From Nemertoderma westbladi (lineage: Eukaryota > Animalia > Xenacoelomorpha), in NCBI GenBank assembly GCA_032718475.1, contig JAUCBJ010006632.1, positions 1 through 64,000 of the forward strand: a stretch of 64,000 nucleotides of DNA, in the 5' to 3' direction. This document shows positions 50 through 46,000 of this stretch, piece by piece; position 1 is the first letter of the stretch; every line of letters begins with the position of its first letter. Below the pieces are notes generated by a model, which was not told the DNA's origin, searched no databases, and saw only the letters and a program-made list of their open reading frames with translations. The position numbers and the translations under genes were made by a program.

Positions 50-461
50 TCGTAATGTGGTTGTTCCCTCGCCTCATTCGTGATGTCTGGTTGTTCCCAC
101 GCGACGTCTGGTTGTTCCCTCGATACGTACGGGATGTCTGGTTGTTCCCTCGATACGTACGGGATGTCTGGTTGTTCCCACGCGATGTCTGGTTGTTCCC
201 TCGATACGTACGGGATGTCTGGTTGTTCCCACGCGATGTCTGGTTGTTCCCACGCGATGTCTGGTTGTTCCCTCGATACGTACGGGATGTCTGGTTGTTC
301 CCTCGATAAGTACGGGATGTCTGGTTGTTCCCACGCGATGTCTGGTTGTTCCCACGCGATGTCTGGTTGTTCCCTCGATACGTACGGGATGTCTGGTTGT
401 TCCCACGCGACGTCTGGTTGTTCCCTCGACACGTACGGGACGTCTAGTTGTTCCCTCGCCA
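50..461. repeat. Compound minisatellite of interspersed 21-bp and 30-bp units
   Basis: Units GATGTCTGGTTGTTCCCACGC and GATGTCTGGTTGTTCCCTCGATACGTACGG share a 17-bp core. Both lengths are multiples of 3, which explains the repetitive ORFs on both strands. Confidence 0.95.
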
Positions 462-14595: not shown

Positions 14596-14603
14596 CCGCT
14601 CCC
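14596..14603 (-). promoter_or_regulatory. Polypurine tract of element B
   Basis: GGGAGCGG on the minus strand, immediately before the 3' LTR. Confidence 0.85.
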
Positions 14604-14689
14604 AGAAAATGGGATTTAAGTCTATAAAATATACAAAATCACAGTTTCTAAAATATTAAAATACTCTAAACAGTTAGTCTTTCTTGCGT

Positions 14690-16005
14690 GGACGGCGTTT
14701 ACGCAGTTTCTTGAGGCTAGCGAGAGTCCTTTTCTCTTTGGGGCGAGCCACTTTATGAGGAGGGCTGTAGCTCCTAGGCGAAGGGTGCAATATGATTGCA
14801 TTAGAAGGTTTGGGTTTACGGTCGGTGTCTCGTCCATTTCGATATGCTTCTCCTCGAGCTGATTTTCCTCCGCTTGTCATGGGATACGTTCGTCCAAAAC
14901 TCTCGCAAAGAATAGGGTTTTCTAAGCTTGATATCTTCTTTGAGATTCGAGATTTCCCAATCGAACTGAGATAAGGCCAATTCGTTTATCGATTGGACTT
15001 ACTGTTATAACTTACGTTTATCTGAACAAACGCAGATTTCTTTTTTGATCTTTATAGAATAGCGTTTAACTCGTTTTGTACAACGCTCTCCTTCACCTTG
15101 ATGAAGGGTTGTATCGCGTTAAACGGGACGACCATACGGTTGGATAGTGATATTAGGTGTCCGCGTCATAATCCGGCTAGGTAAGATGGGCGGCTAGGTA
15201 GAAATCACTGTCGGAGTGTTACCGATTAATTGTTAGGGTAGCACTAGATCTTTGAACAGTGAATACAGTCCGCGAGGATCCGCGACACCACCAGGATCGC
15301 AGGTCTGAGGTCCAACTAAGGAATGAGGAGGTTTGACCGAGTATTCCGGGACTTTGATCGTAGGTTTACTCCAGGATCGTTCGAGCCGAGTGAGCATAGG
15401 TGATACGTCAAACAAGTTTCGCTCGAAACTCCAGTAAATATAACGAGCACAACTGTGTTTAACACAACGTTTCCGTGGATGTTTATGTCTTTCCGTTTAT
15501 TAGTTGGGTCTAGGGCATTTATCGTAATAATACCAAAGACGCACGTCTGGTAGGGGAAACGCGGGTGATATTTATTTGTTGTTACAATGCTTCTGTCAAG
15601 AATTCCAAATATACGTTGGAGTTACCGCGTTTATTTGTTTCTTTAGTGTCTTTTCTTTCGAGTCTATTTCGAATAGAAATTTCGCATTCGAATTTCAGTT
15701 TATGGTTCTGACTCCGCTGGGCAGGATATATAGTCGACATAGTCCGTATTATGTAAATCGATAGGATGACCAGTAGTTAAGAAGACCATATACGTACCAT
15801 TACGCTGCATATATCGAGCGGCGAATTTTCTATAGTCCAACTCGCGCGCGAGCTGCTCTTGGGACATTGGCGGTTCGATATAACGACCATCGTCCTCCGC
15901 AGCAGTTGGACTAACGTCGCCGCGTATTAAGCTATCAACAAACGCTTGTAAAAGTAGAGTATATCGCTCCCCGATACCAAGACCATCTTCTATCAACTCC
16001 GTCAT
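14690..16005 (-). pseudogene. Deleted remnant of element B's extra 3' ORF (N-terminal part only)
   Basis: MTELIEDGLGIGERY.., FDVSPMLTRLERS.. and ..EMDE.. match A's 34614..36050. The exonuclease and knuckle region is missing before the PPT. Confidence 0.85.
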
Positions 16006-17632
16006 ATCTGCTATATATGAGTTTATCCATATTATAATGAGTTTATATTTAGGCGAGCGGGCGTCGCTGCCTACCCCAATCAACCCCCGGACAGTACGAG
16101 ATCCTCAGCGCCGATGTGTCGTCGCCGCTGTACTTTCGCCAACGACGTAGCCGCACAACGACAACGACAACCGGCACAAGTCACTCGACTGTCCGTCCCA
16201 AAGGCTTAGATATACCTCAGGTTCTTACTGGAGAGTTAGGGTTACTTTCACAATTGCGACTCGCTACTGTAAACACACCTTAGTAGTAACATTCGCCTAT
16301 AAACTCACAAATACCACACACACAACTTGTCACAAATTACACACACTCGGGTCACTTGTCCGTTAGTCAATGCCTTCCAGAATGTCACTGTATTATTATG
16401 TATCCTTGGATACTAGCAGTGCGCTATTTATTCCCTATGCTATTCAATGGGACAAGCTTTCTATTGTTCCTTTAACTCAATTCTAATTCTAGCGTGGTTG
16501 TTGCTATGGTGACATTATGTAAAGCTAGCGGTAGAATTAGGGTAATTCCAATGCATACAGATCTGGGATGTTATTTAATAGTAATTCTTTAATAGTCAAT
16601 GTCCTGTTTTATACATGACTTTATGAATTTTATCGGCTATTGACTATGTTTGGGAGACTTTCGTACACGCATACGCATAATAATATAAATCTCCGCTCCC
16701 CTGATCTATTAATTAATGGAATTTTGGGAATGTTATAAATTGCGTAAAATGGCAATTTATTAAATTCATTAAAAGACATGAATTTAAATTTATTCCCTGA
16801 AATTTTATTATTTGACACTTAAATAGACATATTTTGATTCTAAAACATGTCTGGGGACACAAGATCCTTAATTCTACGAAAATTGTCCTTTTAAGAATAT
16901 CGGTAAATGCTACGATATCTTAATCGACTAGAATTGTTAAAGGATCTGAATTTTGCAGATTTTGACATATTAGATTTGCAAATATTAAATAATTAATATT
17001 TGAGATGGGCACCGATTTATTCCAGAACTTGTCTGGGGACGTTAACCACTGATTCTATAATTTGTCTTTCAAGTATATCGGTGGGTGCCACGATATCTTA
17101 ATCGACTAGAATTACAGATGGTCAAAGGGTTTAACAGATTTATTTTGCGTTATACGCTACTGTTAAAGGGACATCACGCTACTATATGTATTATTTAATA
17201 TACGGTATGAGAGCAATATCGCACGAAGCAATGTCAGTGTGAAGAGGCAAGTCGTTTCCAAGGTCTACCAAGAGCTTGGTTTAGCCGAGACACGAGGATC
17301 TGAACTTTGCATTCCTAATACTCTGCCTACCAATAATACTTTAATATAGTAGTGGCTTTATTGTACTTTAATAAGTACGGACATTTCATCTTACTGTAGT
17401 TACGTATTTATAATATAATACGGACAGTAAGGAAAGAGAAAAATAATTATTTCTTCGCCGTCGCACTAAATATAATATAAGTAATTACGTACGTAATAAA
17501 CACGAATATATTGCACTATTCTACTAAATTAAATAAAACGATTATAATAAAATTACATAGTAATACATACATAAATATAAAAATAATAAAATAATATAAA
17601 ATAATAGAGTCACACGCCCACTCCGAACGATA

Positions 17633-20600
17633 TTAAGTTGGGGAGTCCCTAGATGTCGGTTGGATTAGGGAAGTGGTCGTGGGAAGAGTTTCTTGCCTTC
17701 CATAGTTTCCGGAGAGCTCTCTGTCTCTTTCCAGTAAACATAAACGACCCACTGGGCGATTGAGCTGTTGAGTCTCAAAGACTATCCCTGGTTTCTTAAA
17801 GTTCCGCCGCATGACGACGAGCTCTACTGATCTCACCAAACCATCGCTCGAGATATAAGTCTCGATGATACGTCCTGTTTGCCATCGCTTACGTGGGAGA
17901 TCGGGGTCCACAATAAGCACCATGTCTCCAGCGCTGACGTTTTCTTGCTGCGCAAACCACTTAGTTCGAAGTTGTAGAGTGGGCAGGTAATGTTTCTCGA
18001 AATGGTCAGCGAAACGACGGGATAGCAACTGCATAAGTTGCCAGGTTCGACGACAGTACTCGTCTCCGTCTGTGATCTCCGATCGTGGGAGCATGGCTAC
18101 GGGCTTCTTCAGTAGAAAGTGCGCGGGTGTTAGCGCTTCCAGGGAATCAGGATTTGAAGAGACTGGCATAAGCGGTCTTTCGTTGAGATAGGCGGCGATT
18201 TCCTCCATTAACGTCCGCAATAATTCGTCGGTGAGATAAGCGCGACAAGGCACAATAAAGTGGAACGCAGTCTTCACGCTCCTAATCAATCTCTCCCAAC
18301 TTCCTCCCCACCAAGGGGCGTCGGCGGCGTTGAAGGTCCAGCTAGACGCTGTTATCCTTAGCTGATCGTCCACCTGTCTTATGTTCCAGTCCTTTACGTA
18401 AGCTTGAATTTCGTTATTGGCGCCAATGAAGTTCGTTCCCTTATCCGATCTCATCGTGTTACTGGTTCCGAAGCGAGCGATCTGTCGTCGTAAACTCAAC
18501 ACGAAGCTGTTGGTGGATAGATCGTTTACCATATCGAGATGGATAGCTCTACAAGTCATACAAACGAAGATGACACACCATCTCTTGACTATAGTTCGGG
18601 CACGATATACTTCAATAGGGCCAAATAAATCCACACCGGTATTAGTAAAGGGTGGTTCATAGAAGCTTACTCTTTCCCTAGGTAATTCTGCCTCTCGCTG
18701 TGTTAAAGGCCTACTGAATGCTTTCTTACAGGGTATGCAGTTCCTAAGAACTTGGTTCAGAGCCCTACGGGGTTTATAAAAATAGTAGCGAGTTCGAATT
18801 TCACTCAGAACTCGTTCTCTACCAGCATGGTACAGTTTGCTATGAACATCTACAATTATCTTGATTTGTATGTCAAGATTTCTAATAAGTATGGGAAACT
18901 TAGTGTCAAAGGATAATGGGGCGTTTGTTAGCCGACCCCCAACACGTATTAACCCATCTATCATGGTACTAGAGAAGCGATCCCTTAAGCGCATCTGCGG
19001 ATTTCTTAACAACAGGAAATACTTATCGGAATCCTCATAGCATTGTAGGAGTCTCAGCATCTGTTTGTTGGTTTCATCATGCTCCTGGTAACTGATCTTC
19101 TCCTTTAGAAACCTGTCGGATATCTTGTACTTTGGAAGATCTTTAACAGCATGGACTCGTGCAGATGTTGATGGAGCATCATCACTATTCATCATTCATC
19201 ATCATCACTTTGTCCCGGAGTAACGATGATGAAAACATCGTTTCAAATAAGTAACAGCTTTACAAAGCCGATTCCAGGAACTGTAGTGACGTATCGCTCT
19301 CTGCAAGAGAGGTGAGAGTCCTTGCGAGATATCTGGTATTCCAGATTTCCAATCCTTGTCACGGATTTCCAAGATTTCTTTAGTCGTGGCAGTGGGTTTC
19401 TGATCCAAAGCATCCTCTCCGGAAGTAAATAATACAGATAGATCAACCGCAGGTTTAAACAACTTCGATTTACTCGCTCGAGTTTTGGGTTTAACTTTCT
19501 CCGCTCCCTTGGCCTGTCTGATCTCTGCGGTTGTGAGATGGGGAGGCCATTCTTCTTCTTCTCGGTAGAGAAAGCTGGGTCCACCTAACCATTCAGGAGT
19601 ATTTACCAATTCCTTTGGAGTCGCTCCTCGGGAAGCGATGTCTGCTGGATTAATCGTTCCGGGGCAATGTCTCCATTGGTCCATCGTCGTGCGACTAAGT
19701 ATGATGGATACTCTGTTGGTAACAAAGACGCTGAACTGACAGACTTCATTGGTTATATACTCTAACACGAGTAAAGCGTCGGTCCAATAGACAGTTTTCT
19801 CTAATGGATAGTCAATCTGTTCTGTTACATTCCGGCCGATGGCTGTAGCGTATAGAGCCGCTTTTAACTCCGCTCGAGGAACTTTCAACTTGTTGTTGAT
19901 TAATGCCTTAGAAGTAACCAAGGCGACTTTGATTCCATCCGGAGTTTCCACCCTTAGATAGGCTACTATACCTATTCCCATATTGCTGGCGTCTCCAAAC
20001 ACATGGAGTTGATAGGAATACGTAGGGAGAACATGACCAAAATATGAACGGGATATTATAAAATCCTCAATAGCTGGCAGAGAATCTTCCCATTTCATCC
20101 ACTTCTTTAATAATTCTCCCTTAAGTGGATCGTCCCATGAGTGGTTTTCAAGCCACATTTGTTGTACCAAACTCCGAGCAATCAATATAACTGAGCTAAT
20201 AAATCCCAATGGATCGAAATAAGTGCTCAGTATACTTAAGCAAATCCGTTTGGTTCGAACTGGATTATCTCGCTGTTTTAGTTGGAAAAACAGGATATCT
20301 CGCTCTGTGTCCCATTTCAAGCCGAGTGTCTTGTTTCTGGCAGATCATCTTTGATCAAATCGAGATCTTTCGCTCCTCGATCCTCCGCAGGGATCGACTC
20401 CAGAAACTCACGGGAGTTGCTGGTGAATTTCGTTAATCGAAACCCACCTCTTTTTAAGCACTCTACCGTTCCTTTAGCGACCTCAATGGCTTCCTCAACT
20501 GATGGAAGGGACTTCAGATTGTCGTCCATGTATATGTCCCTCTTAATGTTGTCGATCACTTCCTTAGAGAAGGCCTCTCGGTTGTCCTCTGCAGTGGTAC

Positions 20601-23600
20601 GCACTACTGAACAGGCGTTGGAAGGGCTTGAGATTATTCCAAAGGCCTGGATGGTCATCCAGTACTCCACCGGTTTCTGGTTGAGGTCTCCTTCGGGCCA
20701 CCATAGAAATCGTAGGCTATCTCGATCCCTATCCAACACTTTGACTTGCAAGAACATGCCTTCTATATCGGAGGCGAAAGCAATCGAATATTGTCTCAAT
20801 CTTAAAAGAATTCCCAACAAAGATTGAAGTAAGTTGGGTCCGGGTAACAATTCAGAGTTAAGGGATTGACCCATGTAAAGAGCGGAGCCATCAAACACTA
20901 CTCTCACTTCATGTGGCTTACCGGGTTTAGGAACGTAATGGTGAGTTAAGTAATACGTTCTTTCGGTCACAGGTGTTTCTTCCGGTACTCTCTCCGCGTA
21001 TCCCTTATTAATAAATTTTTCCAGCTGTGTTTGATACATTGCTTTAGCTGAAGAATTGGCCGTAAGGCGTCGATGGAGTTGCGCGATTCTTTTTTCCGCC
21101 AAAGGTCTGTTATTGATGAACTTCGGTTCTCTCTTGCGAAAAGGTAAACCGACTTCATACCTACCTTGATCTTTGATGAAACGTGTAGTCGTCTCTTGGA
21201 TCTGCTTGGCCCTTTCCTCTTCCACCGATAAGGCTTTATCGTAGGAATTGGGCTCTACCGCCTCTTGCGTAAAGAATCGTACAGCATGTTCATCTCGAGT
21301 CTTGGCATTACAACGCTCAATGACGTCATTTAACTCGTCGTTATAAGTTTCTCGTTCAGATGGATAGAGAAGTTGACATAAGTTCACTTGATTTTGCCAA
21401 GCCTCGTTTTCCTTAAGGAGATCAATGGTATTCTCCTCATCAAAAAGCTGGTGAATGTCGTCGTTGTCTGAGGAGTATGGAGTTCCCTCAGTTAAATCGT
21501 CTCCCTCACTAGTATCATCTTCCCATTCACTCACCTGGCAGACGCGCTCTTGCGGTAGTCTTTCTCTGAGTGTTCTACGGGAAGGTCCAGTAAAGTACCA
21601 ACCTACTCTAGTTCTTACCGCATAGGTCTGCAGTGGCTGCGGTTGAGCAGGCCGTTTCTCTAATGTCTCCAGCGCCTCATGCGCGTTTTGGCCGATGAGT
21701 ATTTGCCCTCCAGGATAATCAGTCTGGAATCGAGGTATGTTAAGATGTTGGATGCTCTCATCCTCGTCCCAATTATAAAGGTCTGCTTGGGTAGTAGCGA
21801 AGTTCTTTATAGCTACCATTTTCACTGACCTGATGCTATGTTCTCCTAGTTCGTCCTGGGGGGTGGACAACGCTCCTACATAATAATCCGCTGTTATTGT
21901 AGATTTCCAAACTTGCATAATTCCAGACATGTTTAGCGTAGTTCGGAACTTGGGTTGTCCAGCAAATATGTCTTCGGCTAGCTCTTGGTCGATGAATGTT
22001 CCTGTACTACCGGAGTCAAGGAGGGCGTTCACTACATAACTCCGTTTAGGTCCGTGAACCCTTACCTGTACCACAGGAAATTCTCTAATCCCTACATTGG
22101 AAGATGGCTCTTTCCAAGATGGTTGCCGTTCAGAAGTAGTTAGAGTGAGGTCGCTGTCTGTATCTTTTTCATATGTGAGTGCTCGATACACTGCGGTATT
22201 TATCAGGTAACAGGATTCGTTTTCGTCGGAGAACTCATCCGTATAGAATCCTTCCATCTCAGATTGATCAGTGTCGTTCACATCACTGAATTGGACATGT
22301 AGTTCGGAATCACTTACCTGATTCGGACTATTTCGCTCGAATTCAGCGTGCAACAAGATATGATGTTTCGCACCACACTTTGCACACCTTATGTCAGAGA
22401 AACAGGTACGCCGTTGGTGTCCTTGTCTGAGGCAATTATAACATAACCGCTTATCCCACATGACTTCGCGTCTCTCAGTTAATGATTTCTTTAGAAATTC
22501 ATCACACATATTTAAGCGATGGGTCCCGTCGCATAGCGCACATTTCGGTTTGATGTTACTTACCTTATTCTGAGTCACATTGTGTACACTTGCTTTTTCT
22601 TCGGGCTTTCTCACCTGAATTCTCTTGGGAGACGTAGGAGGAGTTTTTCTTACCTGTTCTCTCCTGTCATTTGTTCGAGACTTGAATTTACTTACCTGAT
22701 CTTTAGGCATTTTATTCACGTAATAAGATCTATCAGTGTCCTTCCCGCTATCTTCTCCTTGAGAAGTCTGGCTTTCGCCATCGTCTGTATAACACACTGG
22801 TGTTACCTTTCTCCTAGAGACGGGTTTTTCACTTACCTTGTTTTCCGGTGTCTTCTCTCTGGACAGTTTCAGGAGCTGTAATTTCACTTCTCCATCTAGG
22901 AATGACATGAGATCAGACATGGTAGGGTCTCTTCGTTGTTGTTCCATCATATATAACACTTTCTTATCCCAGCGTGTGCCTACCCCACCTTTCGGTAAAG
23001 TAGAAGCCACAGCTCCAATGACCATAGAACTTTGGTATTCATGAGACTTACCTAACCAATCTAATTGTCTACAGATCTCTTGAATCTCATCGGAAAACTC
23101 TATTATCCCACTGCTGATGAACTTTCTGGGCGCTACTAATTTCGCATATAAATACTTAGCGATATTATTCCTATTACCATACCTGATGTTTAGTGTATCC
23201 CAAACTTGTCTTAATCCGTCTGGATGTCCAATAAACTTTAACGCCATTAACTTGGGAGATCCTTCCAAGCACTCGATGAGGAATCTAAGTTTCTCTCCAT
23301 TAGACAATACAGAGTTCTGTATGTTATCTTTGTAATATTCATTAAAAGGTAACCATTTCATCTCATCTCCATTGAATTTGACTATCTCTCCCACCTTCAC
23401 CGCTTGCCGGGCTTCGGTTCTAGCCATTTGACGCGTAAAACTTTCTTGGGCCATCGTGTTATTTAATATCGAGTTATCGGTATATAAATTTCTCGGATTA
23501 TGATCCGGTCTATAGGGAATATCATTATCAACAGGTCTATAATTACCCTTAATAGGGTTCACTATAGGAGTTTCTACTTCGCTAGCAGTATAGATGCGTG

Positions 23601-26560
23601 TAGGCTCCACACCTTGCGCATGAGATACTTCAGACCTAACGGGTTGACACATTGTTACAAGGGGTGGTGGTATACCCTTTTGTAAATTTACTAATTTATC
23701 GCGTTCTAACGCGATATTTTGCTGCACTTCCTGCAATTCTAACCTACTTTCCTTTACTGTTCCCTTTAACTGTTGAACAGTCTCTTCTAACTCTCGGACC
23801 TGTTGGGAGGAGCGAATGTGATTCTCCTCCATCTTTCCGAGGAGAACGTCCATCCCCCGCCGTCTCTCGTCTACCCAATCAACCGCCGAAACGGGATCCG
23901 CCAACGTTGTAGCGGGCGGACGAGGGACAACGGGCGACAAACCATGAATATTTCGCTCGGAGTCCAGAGTATGAACTATCTCATGGGCTGTTCTGCTGGG
24001 CACAGGTAACTTAGTGCTGTGCAACGGGAATTGAGAGGTAGGTTCAGGGAGTACAGGTGTCTCTACGACCGAAAGTGTGACTTCGGGAACAGGCCTAACT
24101 ATTTCAGGCTCATCTACTATAGTAGGGAGTCTCTCTATTGTAATTATTTGTTCTGTGGGTTCTGTACTCGCTAAGTTGGTGTTATTTAGTTGCCTTCTAA
24201 CAGCTGGAGGCAAATCAGGCAATTTTTGACGGTGGAACGTTCTTTTACGTCTGCTTAGGCGAGATCGATTTCCTCCGCCTTCAGTGTCGGTGGTATCGCC
24301 TTCCTCAGATGATGTATAACCCTGTCTTTTGGGAGTCGATCGACTCATCATCTGCATATGTGGCTGGCCACGAGAAAAGGGACCTTATGTCGCAAAACCT
24401 GATTCTGAGATAATCGCGTTTAAAGTTTCCCTCTATTTTTGAACAAATTTAATTGGATTATCAATTTAGAAATGTATAAAACGATGAGGGAAATTCAAAT
24501 TGGTTCTGATATTCAATATACCTAGGAAATAACTAATTACAGGAAGCAATATAAGATGTTGCAGTATATAACACTGTCTTAGGGTTTTCATGTCTGAATT
24601 TAGGACTGTAATAAAATTGTAATTGCACTACTGTAATACAGTATGTAGGTACTGTAGGCCTACAGTTATTTTTTAAATGCAATATGGCTGTCATTTTCTT
24701 AATTTATCTTCGTTAGTTCTTAAATTTTGTAATCCCAATAAAGAATTCAAAATACAAATAATTTTAAATTTTGTTAAAAATATTTATCTTTTTGGAAAAA
24801 TTTTAAATTAAAAAAAAAAATTTTTTGGTTACATGTTTTTTTGAAAATTTTGCAAAAATTTTTTTAAAATAGTTCATGAACAATATTAATAGTTTCAAAG
24901 TGTTAAAAGTTGTATAAAAAGCCGAATAACATTGAGCTGCCTAACTATATAGTTAGAATGCTATGATATTATTAATCTTTTCCATTTTTTTAAATAATCG
25001 CTTATTATAACCGCTATTAATAAAATTAAAACTACCCGATTCACCTTCACATAAATCGCTATAACTTTTTTTTGGAAATAGATATTGAGACACCGTTTTT
25101 TTTGTTAGAATCTCTGGAAAATTCTGCATCTCATAGGCCTAATAACTCAAAATCGACCTCCGGTGACATAAGGTCCCTTTTCTCGTGGCCAGCCACATAT
25201 TACTAGCTACTAACTGTTTACTGAAGTCGTCTTGCTTCTCTTGAAGATTTTCCAACTCCAGTTGGATGATCTCTTCAGCCGCTCTCCGTTCTGCTTCCGC
25301 CACTGCTGCCGCTTTTGCCTCTGCCGCTGCCGCTTTTGCCTCTGCCGCTGCCGCTTTTCTTTCTGCCTCTGCCACTGCTGCTATCTTTCTGTCTTCTATA
25401 CGTTTTTTCCTTACTTGTTCTTCCTTTTCTCTAGCGATGCGGAGTTGTTCATCGAATTTAGCTTGGTTCGCCGCTAACCTATCCACATCAATTGCATCTA
25501 ACACAAGTTTGGCTCCTTCGCTATTAGGGCTAAGTCCCTCTAGCCTTCTCCTCAACTCTTCATCTCCCAAAGAACGCTGATAGTCTGACAGATAGATGTC
25601 AATGGCATCCTTCTTATGCGGTTTCTCTGCCGTCGCTTCACTTTCCACTTGGGAAAAAGTAGCGTCCGTCGATTCTCCATGGGTTGAGCGCTCCTCCAAC
25701 TGAGCTTTCCACTGAGCTGCTCCTTGAACCTGGCGTCTCACCCTTTGAAACCAAGTCTTTACGGCAACTTGCAACGACGTGTCTTGTCTTCTTTTAGAAG
25801 CCTCCTCAAAGGCTGATAAGATTAGCCTAATTCGCAGAATTCTTTCTCTAACTTGATAAAGCAGTTGTCCCTGCTCTTGAGGTCCTTGAGGTTGTTTAAA
25901 CAGTTGTTTTTCTACTCGCTCCATAGAGCTGAAGAATCCTTGTGCGTATCCGGCTGCGGACCTCTTCCATACAGCTGGATCGATGGTTTCCTTGGCTACT
26001 CCCATCCGGTGTATGTCTTCCCAGGCAGCTTCTGATAAATCAAACGGGAGTCCGGGTCCGGGGAAGTTCCATTGCGACTCGACAATAGACGTCAGTTCTT
26101 CCCTCGTGTATCCCGCATAACTATCTCTAGTTGATCGTTGACTTCTCGCCCAATCGATCTGGTGTTCTTCCACCGCGATCAATAACCTAGTGAGTACGGC
26201 TGCAGGAAGGATGAGAAGGGGATCCGTATAAACCGCATCCGTCATCTCTGCTCCGCGCTCGGGTGTCAGCTCTACAGTATCCTCACTACTGGAGCTGTTG
26301 GGCCGCTGAGGAATAAGTTCTTGACTCGCGGGTTGTTGCTGTTCCGCTGCTTCTTGGTCCCGCTTGACCTGAGCTCGGGTGCCTATGATAGACCTACGAT
26401 GTTGGACTAGCCTAGGTTCTGTTATTACTACTGGAGGGATGACCTTTCTCACAGTGGGAGGTGAACTGAACTTACGACTCGACGGTTCTATATCTCTATC
26501 TGAGTCGCAGATAGTTACATCTAATAAACTGTCTGACAGGTTCTGCTTAGTATCAGACAT
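17633..26560 (-). pseudogene. Element B gag-pol polyprotein (Gag, PR, RT, RNase H, IN)
   Basis: Triple knuckle, LLDSGS, YMDD, HVFGDAS, HAG..CIPC, GVDLFGP, SDKGTNF, WWGGSWER. Broken by a MITE (24360-25196), a frameshift near 20320 and four in-frame TGA at 19196-19207. Confidence 0.95.
24360..25196. mobile_element. Non-autonomous TIR DNA transposon (MITE), 837 bp
   Basis: Perfect 32-bp TIRs GTGGCTGGCCACGAGAAAAGGGACCTTATGTC, ATAT on both flanks, AT-rich non-coding interior. Removal restores B's gag frame (..LVASN-MQMMS..). Confidence 0.93.
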
Positions 26561-27889
26561 GTTTGTATGTACAGTTGAATGCCTACTGCTATATTACAGT
26601 CTAAGCAAGTCTAGTAATTCAGTATTAACTGCTAGCCTAGTAATTAACTACCGATACTGCTACTCAGTGCAGCGTGATATATATAATATATTAGAATACC
26701 GGTATGCTTATAGTATATATAAGTATTATTACAGACTATGTTTATCACAGAATACCGGTATAATTTTAGCACAAATATATATAAATATATAATAGGCCTA
26801 TCGGGAATACCGGTATACAGCTTACAGTTTGTAGTATATATAATTCTGGACTAGAATTAATTACAAGTACCGGTATAATTTCAGCCTAAATTTATAGAAA
26901 TAAAGATAATAGGCCTATCGTAAATACCGGTATATCAATTATTTTAAATAATTGAATTTCTGAACTTTAAGGGTTACTTGGTTACTCTACTTACTTTATT
27001 ACCGTTATTTGAGCAGTAGTCCAACTGATATTGAGACCTAATGGTTATATGGTAGGCCTACTATTTATAAATCGTTAGATTTGATTTATAATATATATAT
27101 ACCCGTTTTAATGGGTTTTGTCAATGTTTGAAATAAATGTTATTATTTCTGGGGAGTAATCACTACACAAAGCGGTGCGCTTTCAGTGAAGTGTTACTTA
27201 TAGGACACTAAAACAAATAATGCTAATTTACCTAAGTTACTTAATACTACAAATTACGTACAATTCGGGTGAGATTACAATCTCTAAATAAACACAAAAA
27301 TTTACAAAAAACACAAAATACGAATTTTTAGGGTAATTTTACAAGAAGTCTACAAACCAGCCTAACAAAGGGTTAGAAATCTGGTTATTACAACGGACAG
27401 GGTACTACGGTATTTGAAAATAATAAGTAGTAGTGAATACACTGCGCTGTCCAGATAGGAAAATACCACCGCCTGACGACCTATAGCCGTATCGCTATAG
27501 GTTCTACGTTATGTATCACGGAGTGTTCCTACCTAGAAGTTAATAGAGCTAATCGAACATGCCTATCAACCACTTTACAACACAAATATAATGCCTACAC
27601 TAATTACTTTCGGAAAGCACTGTACACTAAACCCTAAATTAGGTACGAGTACTTGTACAACAGATAATCAGTAGTTAAATATACTTGAACAGTTAAAAGA
27701 ACCACGGCATCTGCTGGAGTAACCGGTGCACAAAATCACCAGTCTTTACCTACGCCTAGCAGCCCGTGTAGTACCGGGGTTAGTTTAACTATAACGGTAT
27801 GTACAACAAACACAATTACTGTAGGAACAAACTTGGGGAATGAATGTTGTGAATAATCGCATAAACTCTGAATAATAAATATTACGCAA

Positions 27890-28450
27890 CGCGTACAAAC
27901 TACTCAAACAAAATGCAGACCAAATACCGACAGACTACCATCAAGCCTAAACAAACTACGGTATATGCAGACTCCGAAATGATTAGGTAGTATGCGTTCT
28001 AACCCAGTAGTACGACTTATTCTTTAGCTGGGGGTTTACCTTATAGCATTTGGCTGCCCCTACTTCCTAACCGTACTTAATCGGACAGGTGCTCTACACA
28101 CACTACAATCCGTTCAGACCTAATAACAGCCAGACAATTATCCAGCCTACAAATTATCTAAATAAATATTATACGCTACCTGTACAGACTTACACAAACA
28201 AAGTACAGACCAAACGATGGCAGACTACTATCAAGCCTAAATAAACTACAGGACATGCAGACTCCGAAATGATTAGGTAGTATGCGTTCTAACCCAGTAG
28301 TACGACTTATTCTTTAGCTGGGGGTTTACCTTACAGCATTTGGCTGCCCCTACTTCCTAACCGTACTCAATCGGACAGGTGCTCTACACACACTGCAATC
28401 CGATCAGGCCTAACAGCAATCAGACAACAGCTCAGCCTACAAATTGTCTG
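27890..28450. repeat. ~290-bp tandem duplication in element B leader
   Basis: GCAGACTCCGAAATGATTAGG... at 27967 and 28257. Single copy in A (~6180-6470). Confidence 0.9.
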
Positions 28451-28625
28451 TACAATCTGATCAGGCTTACACGCCTTCTGTTCAATACTGGCCTACAAAC
28501 AAATAAAACTTGACAGAAATAAGTAAAAATCTCAATAAAAAACCAGGGCTGCAGTCCCTGATTAATTATTAAGGCCTACCGGTATATAACTATCAAAATC
28601 GAATAATACTGCTGTACTTATACGG

Positions 28626-28747
28626 AAGTACCGGTTAGGACAGTTGGGCCTACGGACCTACAGAAGTACTGGTTCTGGCAGTTGGACCTACGGGCCTATG
28701 GCAGTACCGGTTCTGGCAGTTGGGCCTACTGACCTACAGATGTACCG
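28626..28747. repeat. Three ~37-bp degenerate tandem units in element B leader
   Basis: AGTACCGGTT.TGGCAGTTGGGCCTAC.GACCTAC-like units. Confidence 0.75.
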
Positions 28748-28817
28748 TTCAGGTTTACCGGTTGTCCGGTACTTTCAACTTTATTGCTTACTGCAATAAA
28801 GAAGCAATATCCTTTAA

Positions 28818-30011
28818 TGTTCGCGCTTTCAGACCTTTGGCAGTTTAACCCGCCAAATTAGGATGTCTTCTAGATATTAAATGGCCTTTTAGCCTATGAC
28901 AAGTATTTGATTCACTACACTAGTCGAAACCAATCTGTGCGCGATCATTCACCCGCTGGTTATACCCGGGAGATTGGGTTCGACGGCTTAATCTTATTGC
29001 TATGTAAGCCTAATGTATTATTCGACTGACAGTATTATATAATCTCTGACAATATTATTCACCTTCGGGGAATATTAACAGTTCCTTTAGGACGTGGCGC
29101 TCTATCTATATAAACAGAGTTATGACTTAAACTACTCACAACGATATGGTTTAGTTATAATTCACATATATGGCGCATTCTTTAGGAAATGCTTCTTTAA
29201 CAGACTCACTCATATACAATGCTGCACAATACTGCACACTAATCTGCCGATCTTCACTGATTTTAGTCACATATAAAAGGAACACAGACTGACTCATGTA
29301 GGGTCTATCAAATAACATTCGATTCACTTCAAACCACTTTAACATAAGTCACAATCGTTTATCTGTAACCCTTCTCTCTTACCTTCGGTATATCAAGAAT
29401 ATTGGGTTTCGGGGTTATTTATCGTTATTCCAAATATAATAATTCATCAACCATATTATGAATAACTGACAGTAAATAGCAGTATAAAACAACAACTGAA
29501 CACTGATTGTTATGAGTTTGCAATGTTTCAGCAGTTTGTATGGTCAGATCAGGTCAGCAGTTAAAGGATATATGTCCTTATAATTAAACCTACTAGTGTT
29601 GGGCTAAAAAGCAGAAAAGCACAAAACACTACAAAGCCGTTCTTTCGTGGCTTTGAAACTCGTGACTACTACTCTATACGAGGATACCAACTACACTTAT
29701 TCCACGAAGCTCCCGTTCAACACAGAGAAAGAGCAGTGAGATAGGAAAAATTCAGTTCAGTAGCTCTGTGATAGGTCAAAATCAAGGCTAACTCAAATTC
29801 TATTGGGAGATACAAAAACAGGGCTATGACGCAACCTTCCTAGGCTGGTTGGCCGATTAAACAGAGCCCAGATACCTGCGTACAGCAAATCAGCCAATAA
29901 GCTGGTAGCTTGCACTATTTTAACTATAGATCCCTTTTTGAGTATTCTAGCGACCGGGGGGGAACTGGCCAGCAAAGCAAACGAACCAGTTATCCCACAA
30001 AAGCTTTTACA
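28818..30011 (-). mobile_element. 5' LTR of element B
   Basis: Direct repeat of 13402..14595. Confidence 0.97.
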
Positions 30012-32907
30012 AACATCAAACGGTATATATACATGGACAACAATTTAAAGTCCCTCCCATCGGTGGAAGAAGCCATTGATGTTGCTAAGGGAACGGTAGA
30101 GTGCTTGAAACGCGGTGGATTTAGACTAACCAAATTCACAAGAAACTCCCGTGAGTTTCTGGAATAGATCCCGGTGGAAGATCAAGGTGTTAAAGATCTG
30201 GACCTTATCAAGGACGATCTTCCGAAAACCAAGACGCTTGGTTTGAAATGGGACACAGAGAGAGATATCCTGTTTTTCCAGCTAAAACGGCGAGATAATC
30301 CAGTTTGAACTAAACGGATTTGTCTAAGTATCCTGAGCACTTATTTCGATCCATTGCGATTTATTAGCCCCGTTATATTGGTTGCTCGGAGATTAGTACA
30401 ACAAATGTGGCTTGAAAACCACTCGTGGGACGATCCACTTAAGGGAGAACTACTAAAGAAGTGGATGAAATGGGAAGATTCTCTACCATCCATCGAGAAC
30501 TTAACGATTTCCTGTTCATATTTTGGTCACGTTCTCCCCACATATTCCTAACAACTCCATGTGTTTGGAGACGCCAGCGATATGGGAATAGGTATAGTAG
30601 CCTACCTGAGAGTTGAAACTCCGGTTGGAATTAAAGTTGCCTTGGTTACCTCTAAGGCCTTGATAAACAACAAACTACGAGTTCCTCGAGTGGAGTTGAA
30701 GGCGGCTCTATACGCTGAAGCCATCGGCCGGAATGTAACAGAACAGATCGACTATCCACTGGAGAAAACTGTCTATTGGACCGATGCTTTACTCGTTTTG
30801 GAGTATATAACCAATGAAGTCTGTCAGTTCAGCGTCTTTGTTACCAACAGAGTAGCCATTATACTTAGTCGCACTAATGTAGATCAATGGAGACATTGCC
30901 CTGGGACGATTAATCCAGCCGACATCGCCCCCAGAGGAGCGACTCCCCAAGAACTGATAGATACTCCAGACTGGTTAGGTGGACCCGACTTCCTAAGTAA
31001 AGAAGAAGATGAATGGCATCCTCATCTTACCACGGCTGAGATTAGACAAGCCAAGGGACCAGAAAATGTCAAACCTAAAACCCGGGCAAGTAAATTAAAG
31101 TTATTCAAACCCGTGATAGATCTGTCTGTACTACACATTTCTGGGGACGATGCTGTGGATCTCAACTCACCCGCCACCAATAAATCTGTTGTAGAAATCA
31201 GAGAAAGAGACTAGAAATCTGGAACACCAGACGTCTCGCAGGGACTCTCACCTCTCCTACAGAGAGCGATAAATCACTATAGTTCCTGGAATAGGCTTTG
31301 TAAGGCCGTCGTGTATTTAAAGCGATGCTTCCATCATTACTACTCCATGACAAAGATCGCTAGTGATACCGCTCCACTGACATCCGAGCAGGTCCATGCT
31401 ATTAAAGATCTTCCCAAATACAAAGTATCAGAGAGGTTTCTGACGGAGAAGATCAGTTACCAGGAGCATGAAGAAACCAATAAGCAGATGCTGAGACTCC
31501 TACAATTCTATAAAGATTCCAATAAGTATTTCCTGTTGTTGAGAAATCCACAGACGCGCTTAAGGGATCGGATCGTTCTCTAGCACAATGATAGATGGGA
31601 TAATACGTGTTGGAGGGAGACTAACTAATGCTCCAGTATCCTTTGACACTAAGTTCCCCATACTCATTAGAAATCTTGAAATACAAATCAAGATGATTGG
31701 AGATGTTCACAGTAGGCTTTACCATGCTGGTAGAGAACGAGTTCTTAGCGAAATTCGAACTTGCTATTATTTTCATAAACCCCGTAGAGCTCTCAACCAA
31801 GTTCTTAGGAACTGTATACCCTGTAGGAAAGCATTTAGTAGGCCTTTAACACAGCGAGAGGCAGAATTACCTAGGGAACGAGTAAGCTTTTATGAACCAC
31901 CCTTTACTAATACCGGTGTGGATTTATTTGGCCCTATTGAAGTATATCGTGCTAGGACTATAGTCAAGCGATGGTGTGTCATCTTTGTCTGTATGACTTG
32001 TAGAGCGATCCATCTAGATATGGTGAATGATCTATCTACCAACAGTTTCATACTGAGTTTACGCCGACAGATTGCTCGCTTTGGAACTAGCAACACGCTG
32101 AGATCTGATAAGGGAACGAACTTCATTGGCGCCAATAATGAGATCAACGCTTACGTTAGAGATTGGAACCAAAGACAGGTGGACGATCAGCTAAGGGTAA
32201 CAGCATCAACGCCGCCGATGCCCCTTGGTGGGGAGGAAGTTGGGAGAGATTGATAAGGAGCGTGAAGACCGCATTTCACTTTATAGTGCCTTGCCGCGCG
32301 TATCTCACCGATGAACTTTTTGCGGACGTTAATGGAGGAAATCGCTGCCTATCTTAACGAGAGACCGCTTATGCCAGTCTCATCCAGTCCCGACTCCCTA
32401 GAAGCGCTAACACCCGCGCATTTCTTACTGAAGAAACCTGTCGCCATGCTCCCACGATCGGAAATTACAGACGGAGACAAATACTGCCGACAAACTTGGC
32501 AGCTTATGCAGTTGTTATCCCGTCGTTTTGCTGACTATTTCGAAAAACATTATCTGCCTATGCTACAACTTCGAACCAAATGGTTTGCGCAGCAGGAAAA
32601 CGTCAGCGCCGGAGACATGGTACTTATTGTGGACTCAGATCTTTCACGTAAGCGGTGGCAGACAGGTCGTATAATCGAGACTCATCTGTCCGATGATGGT
32701 TTAGTGCGATCGGTAGAACTCGTCGTCATGCGAAGTAACTTTAAGAAACCTGGAATTGTGTTCGAGACACAGCAACTCAACCGCCCAGTTGGTCGTTTAT
32801 GTTTACTGGAAAGAGACAGAGTACTCTCCGGAAACTATGGAAGGCAAGATACTCCTCCCACGACCACCTCCCTAATCCAACAAACATCTAGGGACTCCCC
32901 AACGTAA
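30012..32907 (+). pseudogene. Element A RT C-terminus, RNase H and integrase
   Basis: YMDN (degenerate YMDD), VFGDAS, YWTDA, HCPGTINPAD, GVDLFGP, SDKGTNF. Several stops and frameshifts. Highly similar to B. Confidence 0.92.
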
Positions 32908-39551: not shown

Positions 39552-41735
39552 TGTTACGGTATATGGCGCTGTATCCACAGTATTAGTCCATTATGCAGTA
39601 TGCAGTATTAGTCCATTATGCAGTATGCAGTATTAGTCCGTTATACTGTACGTAATATTAGTCCGTTGTGCAGTATAATTATTTAGATAAGGCGCAGTGT
39701 GGTGACATTTAGGTAAGGAAGTTAAAACGCCCATATATTTTGCATCCATTCATTTTGTATAGTATGTAGCCCTACCTACGTAATTTTGTATTAGGATATA
39801 TGTAGATAGTTCCAGGGTAGCGAGTTTACTCGGACCCTGGATTTTGTGCTTGCTGATATTAGTTTGATAGGGCTAGCATATAGGGACGCTGTCCTGGCCA
39901 TTCAGCAGCCAGAGACGTGATCCATTACCATATATGGTAATAATTTGAGGGCATAGGGCTACAATCCGGTCTCCTTATTGGATTAACTGCTTCCAGGTTG
40001 GTTTAATGCTAGCATGGACTGGAGAGCCAATGGGAGAGCGATTGAGTCACCTTATTGCATCACCCCATCGGGATCACCTATAAATTGGCGGTGTGCCGGT
40101 AGGGCCTTTTGTTGTTCATATGTTCATGCCTTATCACATGACACACCCCTGTTACAATTTACTTGCTGAGCTGTCTCTAATTTTGTATTAGGATATCGTA
40201 TTTTCTGCAATTTGCTAATTTTGATTAATTTCTTGGAATGATTTGCTAGTACGATTACTTTGCTTGTGTTTCTCAATAATTCCTTCGATTACTGCAAATT
40301 ACAATCGAACTATGATTTCTACCTTTGATTGATGGTTCTATGTGATTCTTTTCTGCGCAATAATCCCAAGGGATTCCTGAGACTGTCAGACTTTGTGATT
40401 TGCATGCGCCGCTACGGTAGCTATTAGCATCATGGAGGGCTAAGGTGCCAGTGGGCGGTGGGCGCATCGGGGGATTGAGCGACTAGGAGAGAGCGGAGGA
40501 TTCAAAGCGGGCAACGCTGGCCAGGGTCACCGTTGCCGCCGGGTATCTTGCACTGCGGCACGCAGACCGATCGCCGGTACAGTATCTAGGGGGCTGATGA
40601 TCCAGGTTTTGTCTCTATTTAGTATTAGGGGGGCAGGAATTGGGTTAGTTAGGAATCCTAGATGTACCCGGGAGAGGCCTGCGCGTCCGCGTATTACAAC
40701 GTTGAGTGTGGAGTACGAGTAGTGAATTGCACAATTGTAAACTGTGATTTCTAACGCTGATTGGTGTGTTATTGAAGTGTGCCTAAGATTACGAATGCTT
40801 AGATAGGCGCTCTTTTCCTTTGATTGATTTCTATTTCTTAGTTACAATAATTAGTTATTGATTAGGTCAAAGTAATACGGCAATTTAGGCTATTACTAGC
40901 GAAACCTGTTGCGTGATAAATTAGAATTACGTATTCTGGAACTCTTAGTAATTAGTACGCTGTTAAATATTTGTGACTGTAATTAATTAGTAAAAAATTA
41001 AGAATTAGTACGCAGCATAGCGGAGAGTAGCTAAGGTAATAATTAGTGTACTGTAAACTATTCACGCTGAGCGGTTATTTGCATTAGCGGGCAATCAGCT
41101 AGAACGCACTATTCGGTACGCACGATACGCTAGTAATTTTGCTGGCCTAAAGCCAGTCGCGGGCAGTTTTAGACTCGGAGTGGTATTATCCACGTAGAAA
41201 CAGATACTGTACCATTTTGATATTTTAAATATTCTCGCATTCACACATTACGTTAGGGAACCTCCAGTATTCGCGATTAGAAAGACGTAGGTAATAGCGT
41301 GCTTTAATAGTGATAGAATTAGGCGTAAGAATACTCTGAGTGCAAGGCCTCTCGCACTCGTCTTAAGTAAACTTAGGGAGCCGACTCGGGTTTATTGTTT
41401 TGGTTATTCCTGCGTGGCTCATAGATTCGAACAGTTAGCTCTCTATCGAGCAATCGGTAGAGAAAGGAACAAGCGATTTTGCAGGAGTTGTGTAAATTTA
41501 GTAAAATATATTAGCGGACGGCAGATTAGCGCCATCTAACGGTAAGTAGCGGTTTGTATTTAGCAACCCTTACAATTTAGTAATATCACGCTCCTGAGCC
41601 CCTTTACTTAACAGTAGAGCAGTCTTTGTGTCTTATTGGTTAGACGAGAACTTATTAGGTTGGCAGAAGGATATTAACGGGTATTGGTCTGTTCAACAGT
41701 TCTGCTGTTAGTATAGAGGTCGCGGTTGTTTATCA
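39552..41735 (+). mobile_element. 5' LTR of element C (2184 bp)
   Basis: TGTTAC...TTATCA, repeated at 57608..59788. Contains ~25-bp tandem units CAGTATTAGTCCATTATGCAGTATG at ~39578-39678. Confidence 0.97.
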
Positions 41736-43064
41736 GTAATACGCGTTTTTGTTTTGCTGTACTGCGTACAGTAAATACGAATTAGATTACTGTATTAGGT
41801 ACTGTACTGCGTACGGTGAGACAGAGAGTATTCTTAGGCTGATTAGTTTAGATTACTGATACTTCGTATCAGTAATACGCGCATATTGCTTTGCTGTACT
41901 GCGTATAGTAAGGCAGATAGTGTATTCTTAGGCTGATAGTAGTATCACAGTATTAAGTAATAAGTTGGAGCACGTGATCGTCTGCTGTAGGCTATAGGCT
42001 AGCGTACAGTAAGACATTGAGTTTATTCTATTAGGTTGTTAGTTTAGATTACTGTATTCACTGGCTGCGTACAATAGTACAGTAGTACATTAGGCTGATT
42101 GTTGTTACTGCGGACGGTAGAAGGACATTTGTTTGCCGTACCACACACAGTATCATTAGGCTGTTAGGTTGGTGTACTGTTTTACTTACTGTGCTGCATA
42201 CAGTGAATGTACGGTAGTGCGTTTTGCTAATTGCGAATACAGCAGTTCCTTAGGCCTTAGGGCAAACAGTAATTAGTAAGTTTTTTGAAAATTTTAGCTA
42301 GGTTTGCGAGAATTCAGTTTTCGGTCAAAATTATTTTGTAAAATTCTAGAGTTTTGTACCGGTATGTTAGGTAACCGCTTAGTTATTTTATACCATCTGG
42401 AGATACATGGCAAGACGGAACTTCTGAGTTTGGGGTTTGTGTGGGTCTGCGGGTTCGGTTTGCAATCAGCGAAGGGCCTGAATCTTTGGACGCGGACGTG
42501 GAATCTCACAGCAAACAAGGTTGGTTGTTCTGTTGGCACCAGTGTGTTTGTGGAAGCAGTAAAAAATTACCGGTTGTTTAACTGCGAAGCTGAACTCAAT
42601 TTATTAGTTAGGATATTTAGGTTTAGCCGGCCATGGTTTTTTGAATCGCTCAAGTTAGAGAGAGAGTTAGAGAGAGTCGCAACCCGAAGATGTAGCCACG
42701 CGCTAGTGGATACATATAATATTTGAAATTAAAATTACGTTGATTGGAGCTATATATATAAAATTAGAAATATTCGGGTGGCAAGTTTATTTTGAATATT
42801 TTGTATTAGATTCAAAGTTATTTTGTGCTATACCGGTATTTAATACTATATAGTAGCTATATAATAATATTTTTTGTTTAAATATTGTGTTAGTATTTGC
42901 TATAACTATATACCCCATTAAATTCACAATATTGCATTGCGAATTTATTTGACATTTGGACCAACTGATTATTTGACAAATAATTTGACCGTATTTCGGT
43001 TAAATTATAATTATATCTCGAACTTTTGCGAGATTTTTGCCAGAAGGCAAATATTATTTAGACT

Positions 43065-46000
43065 ATGAGTGTCTCAGACAAAGAGGCACTAGAGGACAGC
43101 TATGAGACGGCGGCTGGACCGCCGACTGACGATAGCGTAAATATTACTGTTGATGACAATGCCGACTATGACGACGCAGCGAGCGACGCTGACGTAAGTG
43201 AACAGGAGGACGAGACAGTGACTAGTGAGGAAGAACAGCAGCCTCAGGTAATAGTATTAGGATCCCCTACCGCTACTGATAGGAAGGACTGTATGGCAGC
43301 CCGGACAGAGGTGAGTGATAGGGAGGGTAGTGTAGTAGAAGCGAGAGCCCGGAGCCCGGTTTCCAGACCTGTGGGTATGGTAAGTGCCGTGGTCCCGACG
43401 GCTGTTAGGAGTACCTGTAGTTCCCGAAATAATCCTTCAAGTCCACCAAGTGTGAGTCAGGTAAGCGAGAGAGAACTTGATATCGCGATAAAGAAGAAAC
43501 TTCGCGCGCATGCCGGACATATAACTCGGACGGCGGACAAGGTAAGGAAGATGTTAGCTGACCCAGCGAACATCGGGAGGGTAGAGTTAGTAGAGATTAG
43601 AAGAGGATATAACTCAGCGTTATTCAAGCAGACGGAGGAGCTTGCAGTCCTAGCGAAGAAGGCAGTAGAGTCTCAGTCGAGCGACGTAGCAACGAGGATT
43701 TACGACAGGGTTTTAGCAGCCTTGTTAGAGCACCGCGAGTTATCGGAGCGATTCCGACGAGTTAGGACGGAGAACTGGCTGCTATGGGCATCACAAACGC
43801 AGGCGACTCAGGTGAGTGACGCAGAGTTAAGAGACTTAGTGGAGCGGGAAGAGATCCAAGATAAGGAAGAGCGCCGTTATCAGAGGGAAGTTACTAGCTG
43901 GCTGATGCAGAATGGAGTGGTGGTACCAGGCCAGGTGCTACCGACGACGGAGAACATTCAACAGAGGACGTTGACTCCACCCGACGACGCATCTAGAGAC
44001 AGCGGCGATTCCCAGGTTAGTCACGCGCGAGGTAAGGTAATATGTGCTAGATCCCTTGTTTCTCACAACTCGGCGGAGGAGAGAAGACGCCGACTAGACG
44101 AACAGCAGGCGGAAGTTTTGCGTGCACAGGAAGCACGGAAGGAAGCCGAGCGGGAACGGGAGCGCACACGTAAGTTGGACGCAGAGTTACGAGAGTTGGA
44201 AGAGATAAGTAAGCGCGAGCGAGCGGAACGCGAGCAAAGGGAATGTGAACTCCAAGCCGAGCGCGAGCGCGAGGAACTCGAATGCGAACAGAGAGAACGC
44301 GAACTCCAACTCGAATGCGAACGGGAAGCGAAGAAACGCGAACTCCAACTTGAATGCGAACGGGAAGCGAAGAAACGCGAACTCCAACTCGAACGCGAAC
44401 AGGAAGCGAAGAAACGCGAACTCCAAGCCGAACGCGAGCGCAAGAAACTCGATCGTGAACAGAAGGAGCGCGAGCTTCAACTCGAACGCGGACGCAAGGA
44501 ACGCGAACTCGAGATCGAGAAAAGAAGACGCGCATTGTATGAAGAAAAGGCGCGAGTGGAAGAAGAGAGCGCAGCGAGACGAGCGAGGGAAGAAGAAGAG
44601 CGTAAACTGGCGCAGTTGGAAAGTGCGAGATTAAGTTTAGAGAGCGAAGAACGGACTAGGAAGGCGAACGAAATCGCCGAGAAGGGGATGCGAATGCTCG
44701 AAGAATGTGGGGCGAGTGTGGGGACAGAGTTGCGAGAACTGTTCGCACTGCAGAAGGCCGAACAGGAAGCGAGAACTCCGACTATACGCGAGTCAACGAC
44801 GACCAGAATTCCTATACCCGGTCCAGCTATTACGAGTACACGGATCGTTAAACCGTTCTCTACATATCGCACGCCAGTTGGTATTAGTGCTTCACCTATC
44901 GCCCAGGATCTACGTCATCGGAACGCCGCACCACTGTATACCGAACGTGACAACGGAGAATTTAGAGAAGAAACTCCAACGGGACGAGTATTTGGCGAAC
45001 CGAACCCGCGGGTTTGGAATACGCGGACGGAGCGCCGACCCAGTTCGACGGAGAACTTCCGGGTTAAACCGGAAGAGGGATCATATGAGAGACAGCGGAT
45101 TACTCAGATAGAGCCGACTATACAACAGAACCCTAGCCAGGAATTTATTACGAGGGATGAGTTAAGTGCTAGTTTAGCGCAAGCTATATCGCCGCACATC
45201 CAACCTATAACGGACATGCTTAGCAACCTACGGTTAAAGGAAGCAGCCCAGGTAAGAAGTAATTCTAATCCTAGCAGGCCTGAGTTAGATAAAGTCCAGC
45301 CTAGTCAACGAGTACGCATATCGGAGGAGACTATACCACATAGACCTCAGGTAAGGACGCCTGTCCCGAATATCCATAATCCCAATTTCGAAAATTCGGC
45401 AGAAAGATTTATTGAGGAAGCTTGGGTCAGGGCCTCGGCGCGCAAACCATCGCGAGCGCTAAGGACTGACACTGAGTCAAGCGATGAAGAGGAAGAAATG
45501 AGATGTCAGAAGTCCCGAAACTATAAGGAAAGAAGGACGGACGCGGAGCAGGTAAGTTGGAACCACCGGGAAAGGACCAGACTTAACAACACTGCGGAAC
45601 TAAACCATTTGTTAACCCGGAACGACGCAACCCTTAGGGACATAGGTAAGTTTGCTGCTAGGCAAGGACTGCCGACGCAGCAACCCCAGAAGTTTATGGG
45701 TAACCATAAACATTGGAGGACCTTCAAAACCTATGTCGACGAGCAGCTAACCAACAGCACCTTTACTCCCAACGAAAAGTTCAACTATTTGCTTCAGATG
45801 CTCCATCGAGAACCTAGAGCCATTGCTGATAATTTCGTCGGCAATGAAAGAGCATTTGAGTTAGCGATGAAGATGCTTAGTGACATTTACGGGAATAAAA
45901 CCAAGATGGCGCAGTCGATAGTAGAAGACTTGGGTAAGGGCGGAAGGATTACAACTCCGTTAGAGCTGTTGAACTTAGCAAACGCTATTTCGAACGCATT

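Follow-up and report, generated by a model that had tools for sequence, protein, structure and literature searches.

Three BEL/Pao LTR retrotransposons, here called A, B and C, are present in the window, i.e. the whole 64-kb stretch of DNA analysed here, and each carries directly behind its 5' LTR a PBS position that is exactly complementary to a short site within the LTR itself. This PBS-LTR complementarity is a real feature and not a product of chance. Taken together, pairing that begins at the first base after the LTR (+1), a PBS and an LTR site that have changed in step between A and B, and the lack of a TGG-type site make it likely that the elements prime reverse transcription from a site in their own LTR, similar to Tf1. 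Judging from the sequences and from this analogy, we put the probability of such self-priming at roughly 0.8.

BEL/Pao elements in the window

The elements were called by self-comparison of the window and Pfam searches (Table 1). B is a young insertion, located in opposite orientation in the pol region of its relative A, and as judged by LTR identities of 99.8% (two differences) and 99.1%, both B and C inserted recently. The target duplication of B occupies positions 13397-13401 and 30012-30016, and the 3' LTR of B, like that of C, is preceded by a short stretch rich in purines with GCGG at its end. The LTRs have the TG..CA ends and short target duplications of LTR retrotransposons, with 5-bp duplications in B and C; A was assessed without its 3' LTR, as neither this LTR nor a right-hand target duplication was found in the window. 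The nesting of B in a close relative creates a 30-kb inverted repeat.

The coding regions have BEL/Pao-type domains in the order PR-RT-RH-IN, and the closest homologues share the same Pfam families. In B, these are DUF1759, Peptidase_A17, Integrase_H2C2 and DUF5641. Above the Pfam cut-offs, DUF1759, Peptidase_A17 and DUF5641 were found in B and C, and DUF1759 in A. One of the reading-frame pieces of B (20317-24384) carries zinc knuckles, a DSG protease motif and YMDD. The gag-pol regions are in pieces in all three elements, that of B being interrupted by frame changes and in-frame stops. A and B are 73% identical in the distal LTR and 82-83% in pol, and the integrase cores of A and C share 84% and 45% identity with that of B, respectively.

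C has an extra open reading frame of 916 codons after the integrase (53237-55987, plus strand). Pfam gave nothing for it at E 0.5, and the ESM Atlas suggested a link (0.85) to DNA_pol_A_exo1/EXD1-like 3'-5' exonucleases with CCHC fingers. DEDDy exonuclease reading frames occur in rotifer LTR retrotransposons, as passages of PMC5408684 describe.

Table 1. Coordinates of the elements, their candidate priming sites and other features in the window.
Feature	Position	Strand	Description
Tandem array, 21/30-nt	28-509		window start
Element A, 5' LTR	4807-5907	plus	1101 nt
A candidate self-primer	5215-5225	plus	exact complement of A PBS, LTR start + 408 nt
A PBS position	5908-5918	plus	11 nt abutting the LTR
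A hairpin	5926-5950	plus	just 3' of the PBS; conserved between A and B
Element B	13402-30011	minus	BEL/Pao LTR retrotransposon, 16.6 kb; LTR pair, 5-bp target duplication, Pfam
B 3' LTR	14595-13402	minus	1194 nt, TG..CA ends
B identical 11-mer, 3' LTR	14145-14155	minus	sequence match
B gag-pol region	17633-26593	minus	four reading-frame pieces: 25139-26593, 20317-24384, 19205-20344, 17633-19195
B hairpin, 9 bp	28779-28801	minus	just 3' of the PBS; conserved between A and B
B PBS position	28807-28817	minus	11 nt abutting the 5' LTR; no TGG start
B candidate self-primer, 5' LTR	29561-29571	minus	exact complement of B PBS, LTR start + 440 nt
B 5' LTR	30011-28818	minus	1194 nt, TG..CA ends
Element C	39552-59788	plus	distant BEL/Pao element, 20.2 kb, 5-bp target duplication
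C LTRs	39552-41735 and 57608-59788	plus	2.2 kb, 99.1% identical
C candidate self-primer	40688-40697 (5' LTR), 58738-58747 (3' LTR)	plus	exact 10-nt complement of C PBS
C PBS position	41736-41745	plus	10 nt abutting the 5' LTR
Tandem array, 39-nt, coding	44188-44522		first open reading frame of C
Tandem array, 60-nt	63166-63465		near window end

Complementarity between the PBS and the LTR

A first-pass annotation of this DNA had described an 11-nt PBS that follows the LTR end of B directly, with a reverse complement in both LTRs, about 440 nt from the LTR start as compared to about 410 nt in A. We found the same arrangement: the positions are right, the adjacency is direct, the reverse complement occurs exactly twice in the window, once in each LTR of B, and the distances are 440 nt in B and 408 nt in A. 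The match in B stops at 11 nt, the 12th base being unpaired. A third element absent from that annotation, C, has the same layout with 10 nt. Therefore, all three BEL/Pao elements of the window have a perfect match at offset 0 (11, 11 and 10 nt for A, B and C), corresponding to the perfect LTR complement of about 11 nt, adjoining the LTR, that characterizes Tf1-type elements. A tRNA-type PBS is lacking, as none of the three elements has TGG among the 9 nt that follow the LTR. A search for a longer, spliced primer in these three elements gave none (scores of 6.5, 2.5 and 6).

The expectation that a given 11-mer would be present by chance in well under 1% of LTRs proved correct, with the match contained in 18 of 20,000 dinucleotide-shuffled LTRs of B; for A and C the counts were 21 and 46 of 20,000. 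As an empirical control, 11 paired bases were reached by 2 of the approximately 2,990 start positions in the first 3 kb after the LTR of B, the true site included.

Matched changes between A and B

A and B were reported to be relatives in which both partners of the duplex have changed, and this is indeed the case. They differ at 5 of the 11 positions on each side and full pairing is kept, with all five PBS changes mirrored at the LTR site. On the PBS side, the homology of the two elements is evident from the flanks, which agree at 26 of 30 upstream bases and at 38 of 43 aligned downstream bases. Compared to this flank mismatch of 12% (~88% identity), the PBS is a divergent island (5/11 changed; binomial 0.007).

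On the LTR side, MAFFT places the start of the A and B sites in one column. Pair-HMM posteriors are ~0.9 for the 13 nt directly upstream of the sites and 0.62-0.90 at the first duplex base (four parameter sets), and drop to 0.16-0.27 at the last duplex base because of a downstream indel. With a wider context, the pair-HMM log-odds were 6.1 versus -13.5 +/- 2.5 (maximum -2.4) for 60 shuffles. When the 60 nt ahead of each site were aligned locally, A and B showed no significant similarity (575 and 259 of 1000 shuffles). The pair-HMM register therefore suggests that the A and B duplexes begin at the same homologous place. An 8-base motif located ~30 nt before the duplex start is also kept (A 5185-5192, B 29593-29600; posterior 0.8-0.97), the surrounding LTR having diverged.

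The proposal that this covariation reflects a functional RNA duplex is supported by the sequences: the duplex is specific and located where a minus-strand primer must end. The covariation is a single A-B contrast. The matched changes could also be templated, if plus-strand synthesis were to copy the primer into the PBS. Retroviruses copy the primer into the plus-strand PBS, and Ty1 and Ty3 are said not to (passages of PMC7472051). Templated changes would still imply self-priming, though not a pair-by-pair selection. Either route, selection or templating, points to the LTR site as the likely primer.

RNA folding and signals around the priming site

Whole-RNA folding gave variable results for the three duplexes. 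With an RNA starting at the site and ending 60 nt after the LTR, the B duplex reached 0.90, decreasing to 0.46 with a 150-nt tail and to 0.07 or less with added upstream sequence. The C duplex reached 0.99 when the RNA started at the site and had a 60-nt tail, and stayed at or below 0.05 in the five other settings, and the A duplex was at ~0 in all six settings; these values shift with the chosen RNA ends, and such long-range predictions are weak either way. The three duplexes are themselves weak (-9.2, -10.3 and -13.1 kcal/mol), and span 690-1050 nt between primer and PBS. No TATA-like box was found at about -30.

The 3' arm of the hairpin just 3' of the PBS includes AATAAA, which may represent a masked poly(A) signal. 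None of the 27 consensus pairs in the A/B post-PBS hairpins is changed on both sides, i.e. there are no compensatory changes. Folding predicted a U5 hairpin in B. In Tf1-type priming, supporting stems are present around U5 and the leader (U5-IR-like). Rfam gave no matches at E <= 0.5 for the region 28000-30100, and no tRNA gene was found in the 64-kb window.

Several splice-like signals are present in the LTRs and the leaders. A strong splice-donor-like AAG/GTRAGA is conserved in the LTRs of A (5366-5374, plus strand) and B (29377-29385, minus strand), 154 and 189 nt past the duplex start, respectively, and all three elements have a CAG-containing pyrimidine tract 27-36 nt past the LTR end. 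As read from the sequence, splicing from this donor to the CAG would drop the PBS in A and B and yield a non-replicating mRNA. Acceptor-like pyrimidine tracts were also seen 32-65 nt before the primer site in all three elements. In the leader of C, the last 5 LTR bases together with the full 10-nt PBS (41731-41745) are repeated 136 nt downstream (41867-41881), followed by a similar hairpin start. This repeat is a possible second priming site, whose use would produce an incorrect LTR end.

In a sequencing run (X1, contigs only), coding and non-coding parts of B were covered alike and no variant letters were seen at the PBS or the primer site of B. A joint in the LTR (29188-29366) lacked GT..AG ends on the element strand. 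One contig matched B on the primer side, starting at 29557 and running upward, and had a different sequence just 3' of the primer on the element strand, so that the stretch after the primer may vary in the family, as hinted by this single contig.

Related elements and spliced matches

Relatives were fetched with a 28-row integrase alignment, from which the best 80 of 529 metagenome loci and 22 genome-contig loci were taken. A repeat flanked the integrase on both sides in 46 of these 102 loci. After inspection of 24 of the 46, 16 with a definable 5' LTR end were retained, three of them (L014, L022 and L093) with a less certain end that coincides with the contig end. Self-matches were scored in these 16 and in 13 further loci of the 46 with a known LTR start.

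The first-pass annotation suggested scoring matches in related elements against shuffled controls. In a matrix of 19 elements (A, B, C and the 16 relatives), exact contiguous matches of at least 10 nt were found in three of the 19 cognate pairs, those of A, B and C, versus none of the 342 non-cognate PBS x LTR pairs and the 18-46 per 20,000 shuffles given above. TGG was present near the LTR end in three of the 16 relatives (L008, L095 and L102), none of which has a self-match. A contiguous match of at least 10 nt is missing from all 13 non-TGG relatives whose LTR end is defined, eight of which (L017, L040, L042, L045, L065, L083, L085 and L089) have matches across an intron, with scores of 11-14. 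The strict splice rule used here allowed a GTRAG..AG intron inside the LTR with a pyrimidine-rich acceptor, counted G-U pairs as half and tolerated one mismatch (L040 and L065).

The eight spliced matches, representing about seven lineages (L040 and L042 are one family), start 0-2 bases after the LTR and have GTAAG or GTGAG donors and pyrimidine-rich acceptors. The upstream exon contributes just 3-9 paired bases. Because LTR shuffling destroys splice sites, these matches were judged by pseudo-PBS and non-cognate controls. For each of the eight, the score was reached by none of 100 pseudo-PBS positions. Non-cognate spliced scores reached 11 once in 342 pairs, inside the L013/L040/L042 family, and at least 9 in 12 of 342, six of them inside the same family. 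Of the other non-TGG relatives, L013 has a spliced score of 9, reached by 8 of 100 control positions, L022 reaches an exact 10 when the splice rule is relaxed, and neither form was detected in L014, L035 and L093. Of the 13 loci with only the LTR start known, for which the LTR ends are provisional, five (L019, L026, L048, L080 and L087) showed exact spliced matches of 10-12 and two (L031 and L048) contiguous ones of 11 and 14, as compared to 0 of 20 shuffles each, a lenient control. Sister elements with intron-split primers (L083/L087 and L013/L040/L042) have different PBS letters and are still matched across the exon joint.

In a 29-row integrase tree, built without named superfamily references (Pao, BEL, Tas, Suzu, Sinbad, Dan and Flow), A, B and C form one long-branched clade (98/96) with no resolved sister. 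From its sequences, this clade is the carrier of the contiguous, intron-less form. Its neighbours are left unplaced by the tree, and intron gain and loss are therefore not distinguishable.

The 22 BEL/Pao integrase loci from genome contigs (L081-L102) sit in contigs of prokaryote assemblies, some with both LTRs. They are probably host-animal DNA within these assemblies. The described hosts of BEL/Pao elements are animals. No relatives were found in viral contigs.

A model for self-priming

By analogy with Tf1, the genomic RNA of A, B and C would fold back, so that the LTR site pairs with the 10-11 nt PBS. The duplex would then be cut at the 3' end of the primer, probably by the RNase H of the element, and the freed 3' end, opposite base +1, would allow minus-strand DNA to begin at the LTR edge. 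The strong-stop DNA would be about 680, 740 and 1040 nt long in A, B and C, respectively, and would jump to the 3' LTR. The letters of the PBS would be free to drift as long as the partners match, a drift that primer copying into the PBS may speed up. The primer site would not need to be the cap site in these elements.

In the spliced relatives, splicing would join exons within the LTR to form the primer, and the upstream exon, being longer than the paired part, would leave an unpaired 5' tail. An intron located in the LTR upstream of the primer cut would be recopied from the 3' LTR, and thus retained. Taking both forms together, we lean toward self-priming as the normal start of reverse transcription in a large, tRNA-free part of BEL/Pao. 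This start would mostly use a primer built by splicing from two LTR exons, which would tie replication to splicing, with the intron kept via the 3' LTR; an intron-less, ready-made primer would serve the clade of A, B and C.

The alternative that survives best is that the duplex is real and has a structural role, for example in packaging, dimerisation or a switch hiding or exposing the PBS, with priming performed by another RNA, such as an internal tRNA fragment. In this case, A, B and C may be primed by a half-tRNA or a different small RNA of the host. Long-range pairings of the 5' leader are common among retroelements, and conserved hairpins are found around the PBS. Half-tRNA primers are known in some copia lineages, according to passages of PMC6317226. 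Nevertheless, we consider this explanation rather unlikely. The PBS differs between A and B at 5 of 11 positions, and again in C, such that no single host RNA fits. Moreover, the pairing begins at +1, the obligate primer end, in all three elements and ends after 10-11 bases, and the self-match is missing in all three TGG-type relatives.

It is quite improbable that the match is a relic or a by-product, left either by ancestral self-priming or by an inverted LTR snippet pasted in by the reverse transcriptase, on which the elements no longer depend. Such an origin would agree with the broken gag-pol of all three elements, and primer copying, described for retroviruses in passages of PMC7472051, can make matches without selection. 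However, B and C are recent, the perfect match survives five substitutions between A and B, and a one-off paste would not hit +1 in three elements with differing letters. Chance complementarity in AT-rich sequence is very unlikely to the point of being negligible: the A and B 11-mers are AT-rich, nearby positions reach 11 in 0.07-0.17% and 10 in 0.2-0.3% of cases, and 26 of 50 control positions attain the score of C if G-U pairs and any offset are allowed, but the position is preset by the LTR end, all three elements match, including the distant, GC-rich C, and none of the non-cognate pairs does.

Comparison with known systems

In Tf1, an 11-base stretch is complementary to the PBS, and is cut between bases 11 and 12 (passages of PMC7175516). 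Tf1/sushi elements are reported to self-prime, and the same has been predicted of Tcn1 and of the TAR lineage of plant copia elements (passages of PMC6317226). A, B and C resemble Tf1/Tf2 of Schizosaccharomyces pombe, Tj1 of S. japonicus, Tf1/sushi and Tcn1 in having no tRNA site and a 5' LTR complement of about 11 bases to the adjoining PBS (parts of PMC7175516, PMC4600332 and PMC6317226). They are not members of Tf1/sushi and work alike at most, as their Pol domains are those of BEL/Pao, unlike the Ty3/gypsy chromovirus Pol of that group. The primer-to-PBS distance of 690-1050 nt is also unlike that in the Tf1 group. Furthermore, the distant BEL/Pao relatives would need splicing to make the primer, a step absent from the Tf1-group descriptions in these passages. 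The prediction of self-priming in PMC6317226 was based, in the relevant passages, on a stretch of 10 bp or more in the 5' LTR with complementarity to the region 0-5 bp past the LTR. A, B and C have such a stretch, as do TAR/Houba/Osr-1 of plant Ty1/copia, from which they differ in superfamily and host kingdom.

The ICTV family Belpaoviridae (Semotivirus) is described as tRNA-primed, with an 18-nt tRNA-Arg/Gly PBS, a length of 4.2-10 kb and a poorly understood replication (PMC8742986). The group of A, B and C shares with it a zinc-knuckle Gag, protease, RT, RNase H region, integrase, TG..CA LTRs and the BEL/Pao Pfam families. Unlike this profile, the group lacks a TGG-type PBS, B and C are 16.6 and 20.2 kb long, and the LTR of C measures 2.2 kb. 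Similar to the fungal GalEa copia and bivalve biv-TRIM elements, there is no tRNA PBS and a 9-bp hairpin lies just past the LTR (passages of PMC5445492 and PMC6934838). For GalEa, those passages state that no LTR complement to the conserved hairpin site was found, whereas in A, B and C the complement is exact, and covaries between A and B.

The terms 'primer', 'PBS' and 'tRNA' are absent from the main text of a survey of metazoan BEL/Pao elements (PMC3118150), and 'PBS' and 'tRNA' from the Sinbad paper (PMC554778). No self-priming BEL/Pao element was found in the literature searched, in so far as its texts were accessible; supplements, Repbase/GyDB entries and subscription journals may contain one. 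The feature would be a variant of a known self-priming mechanism, in a superfamily described as tRNA-primed.

Implications

Self-priming has been shown for Tf1, a Ty3/gypsy element, and predicted for one plant copia lineage, and BEL/Pao is the third LTR superfamily. If confirmed, self-primers would be present in all three. This would bear on the question of whether hairpin priming had repeated origins or is the ancestral state, the latter having been proposed in passages of PMC3601003. It would also account for BEL/Pao elements without a recognisable PBS, and help annotators to locate LTR ends. Elements of the A/B/C type would be beyond silencing by tRNA fragments. Finally, intron-containing and intron-less forms occur side by side, which makes the splice-built primer directly testable.
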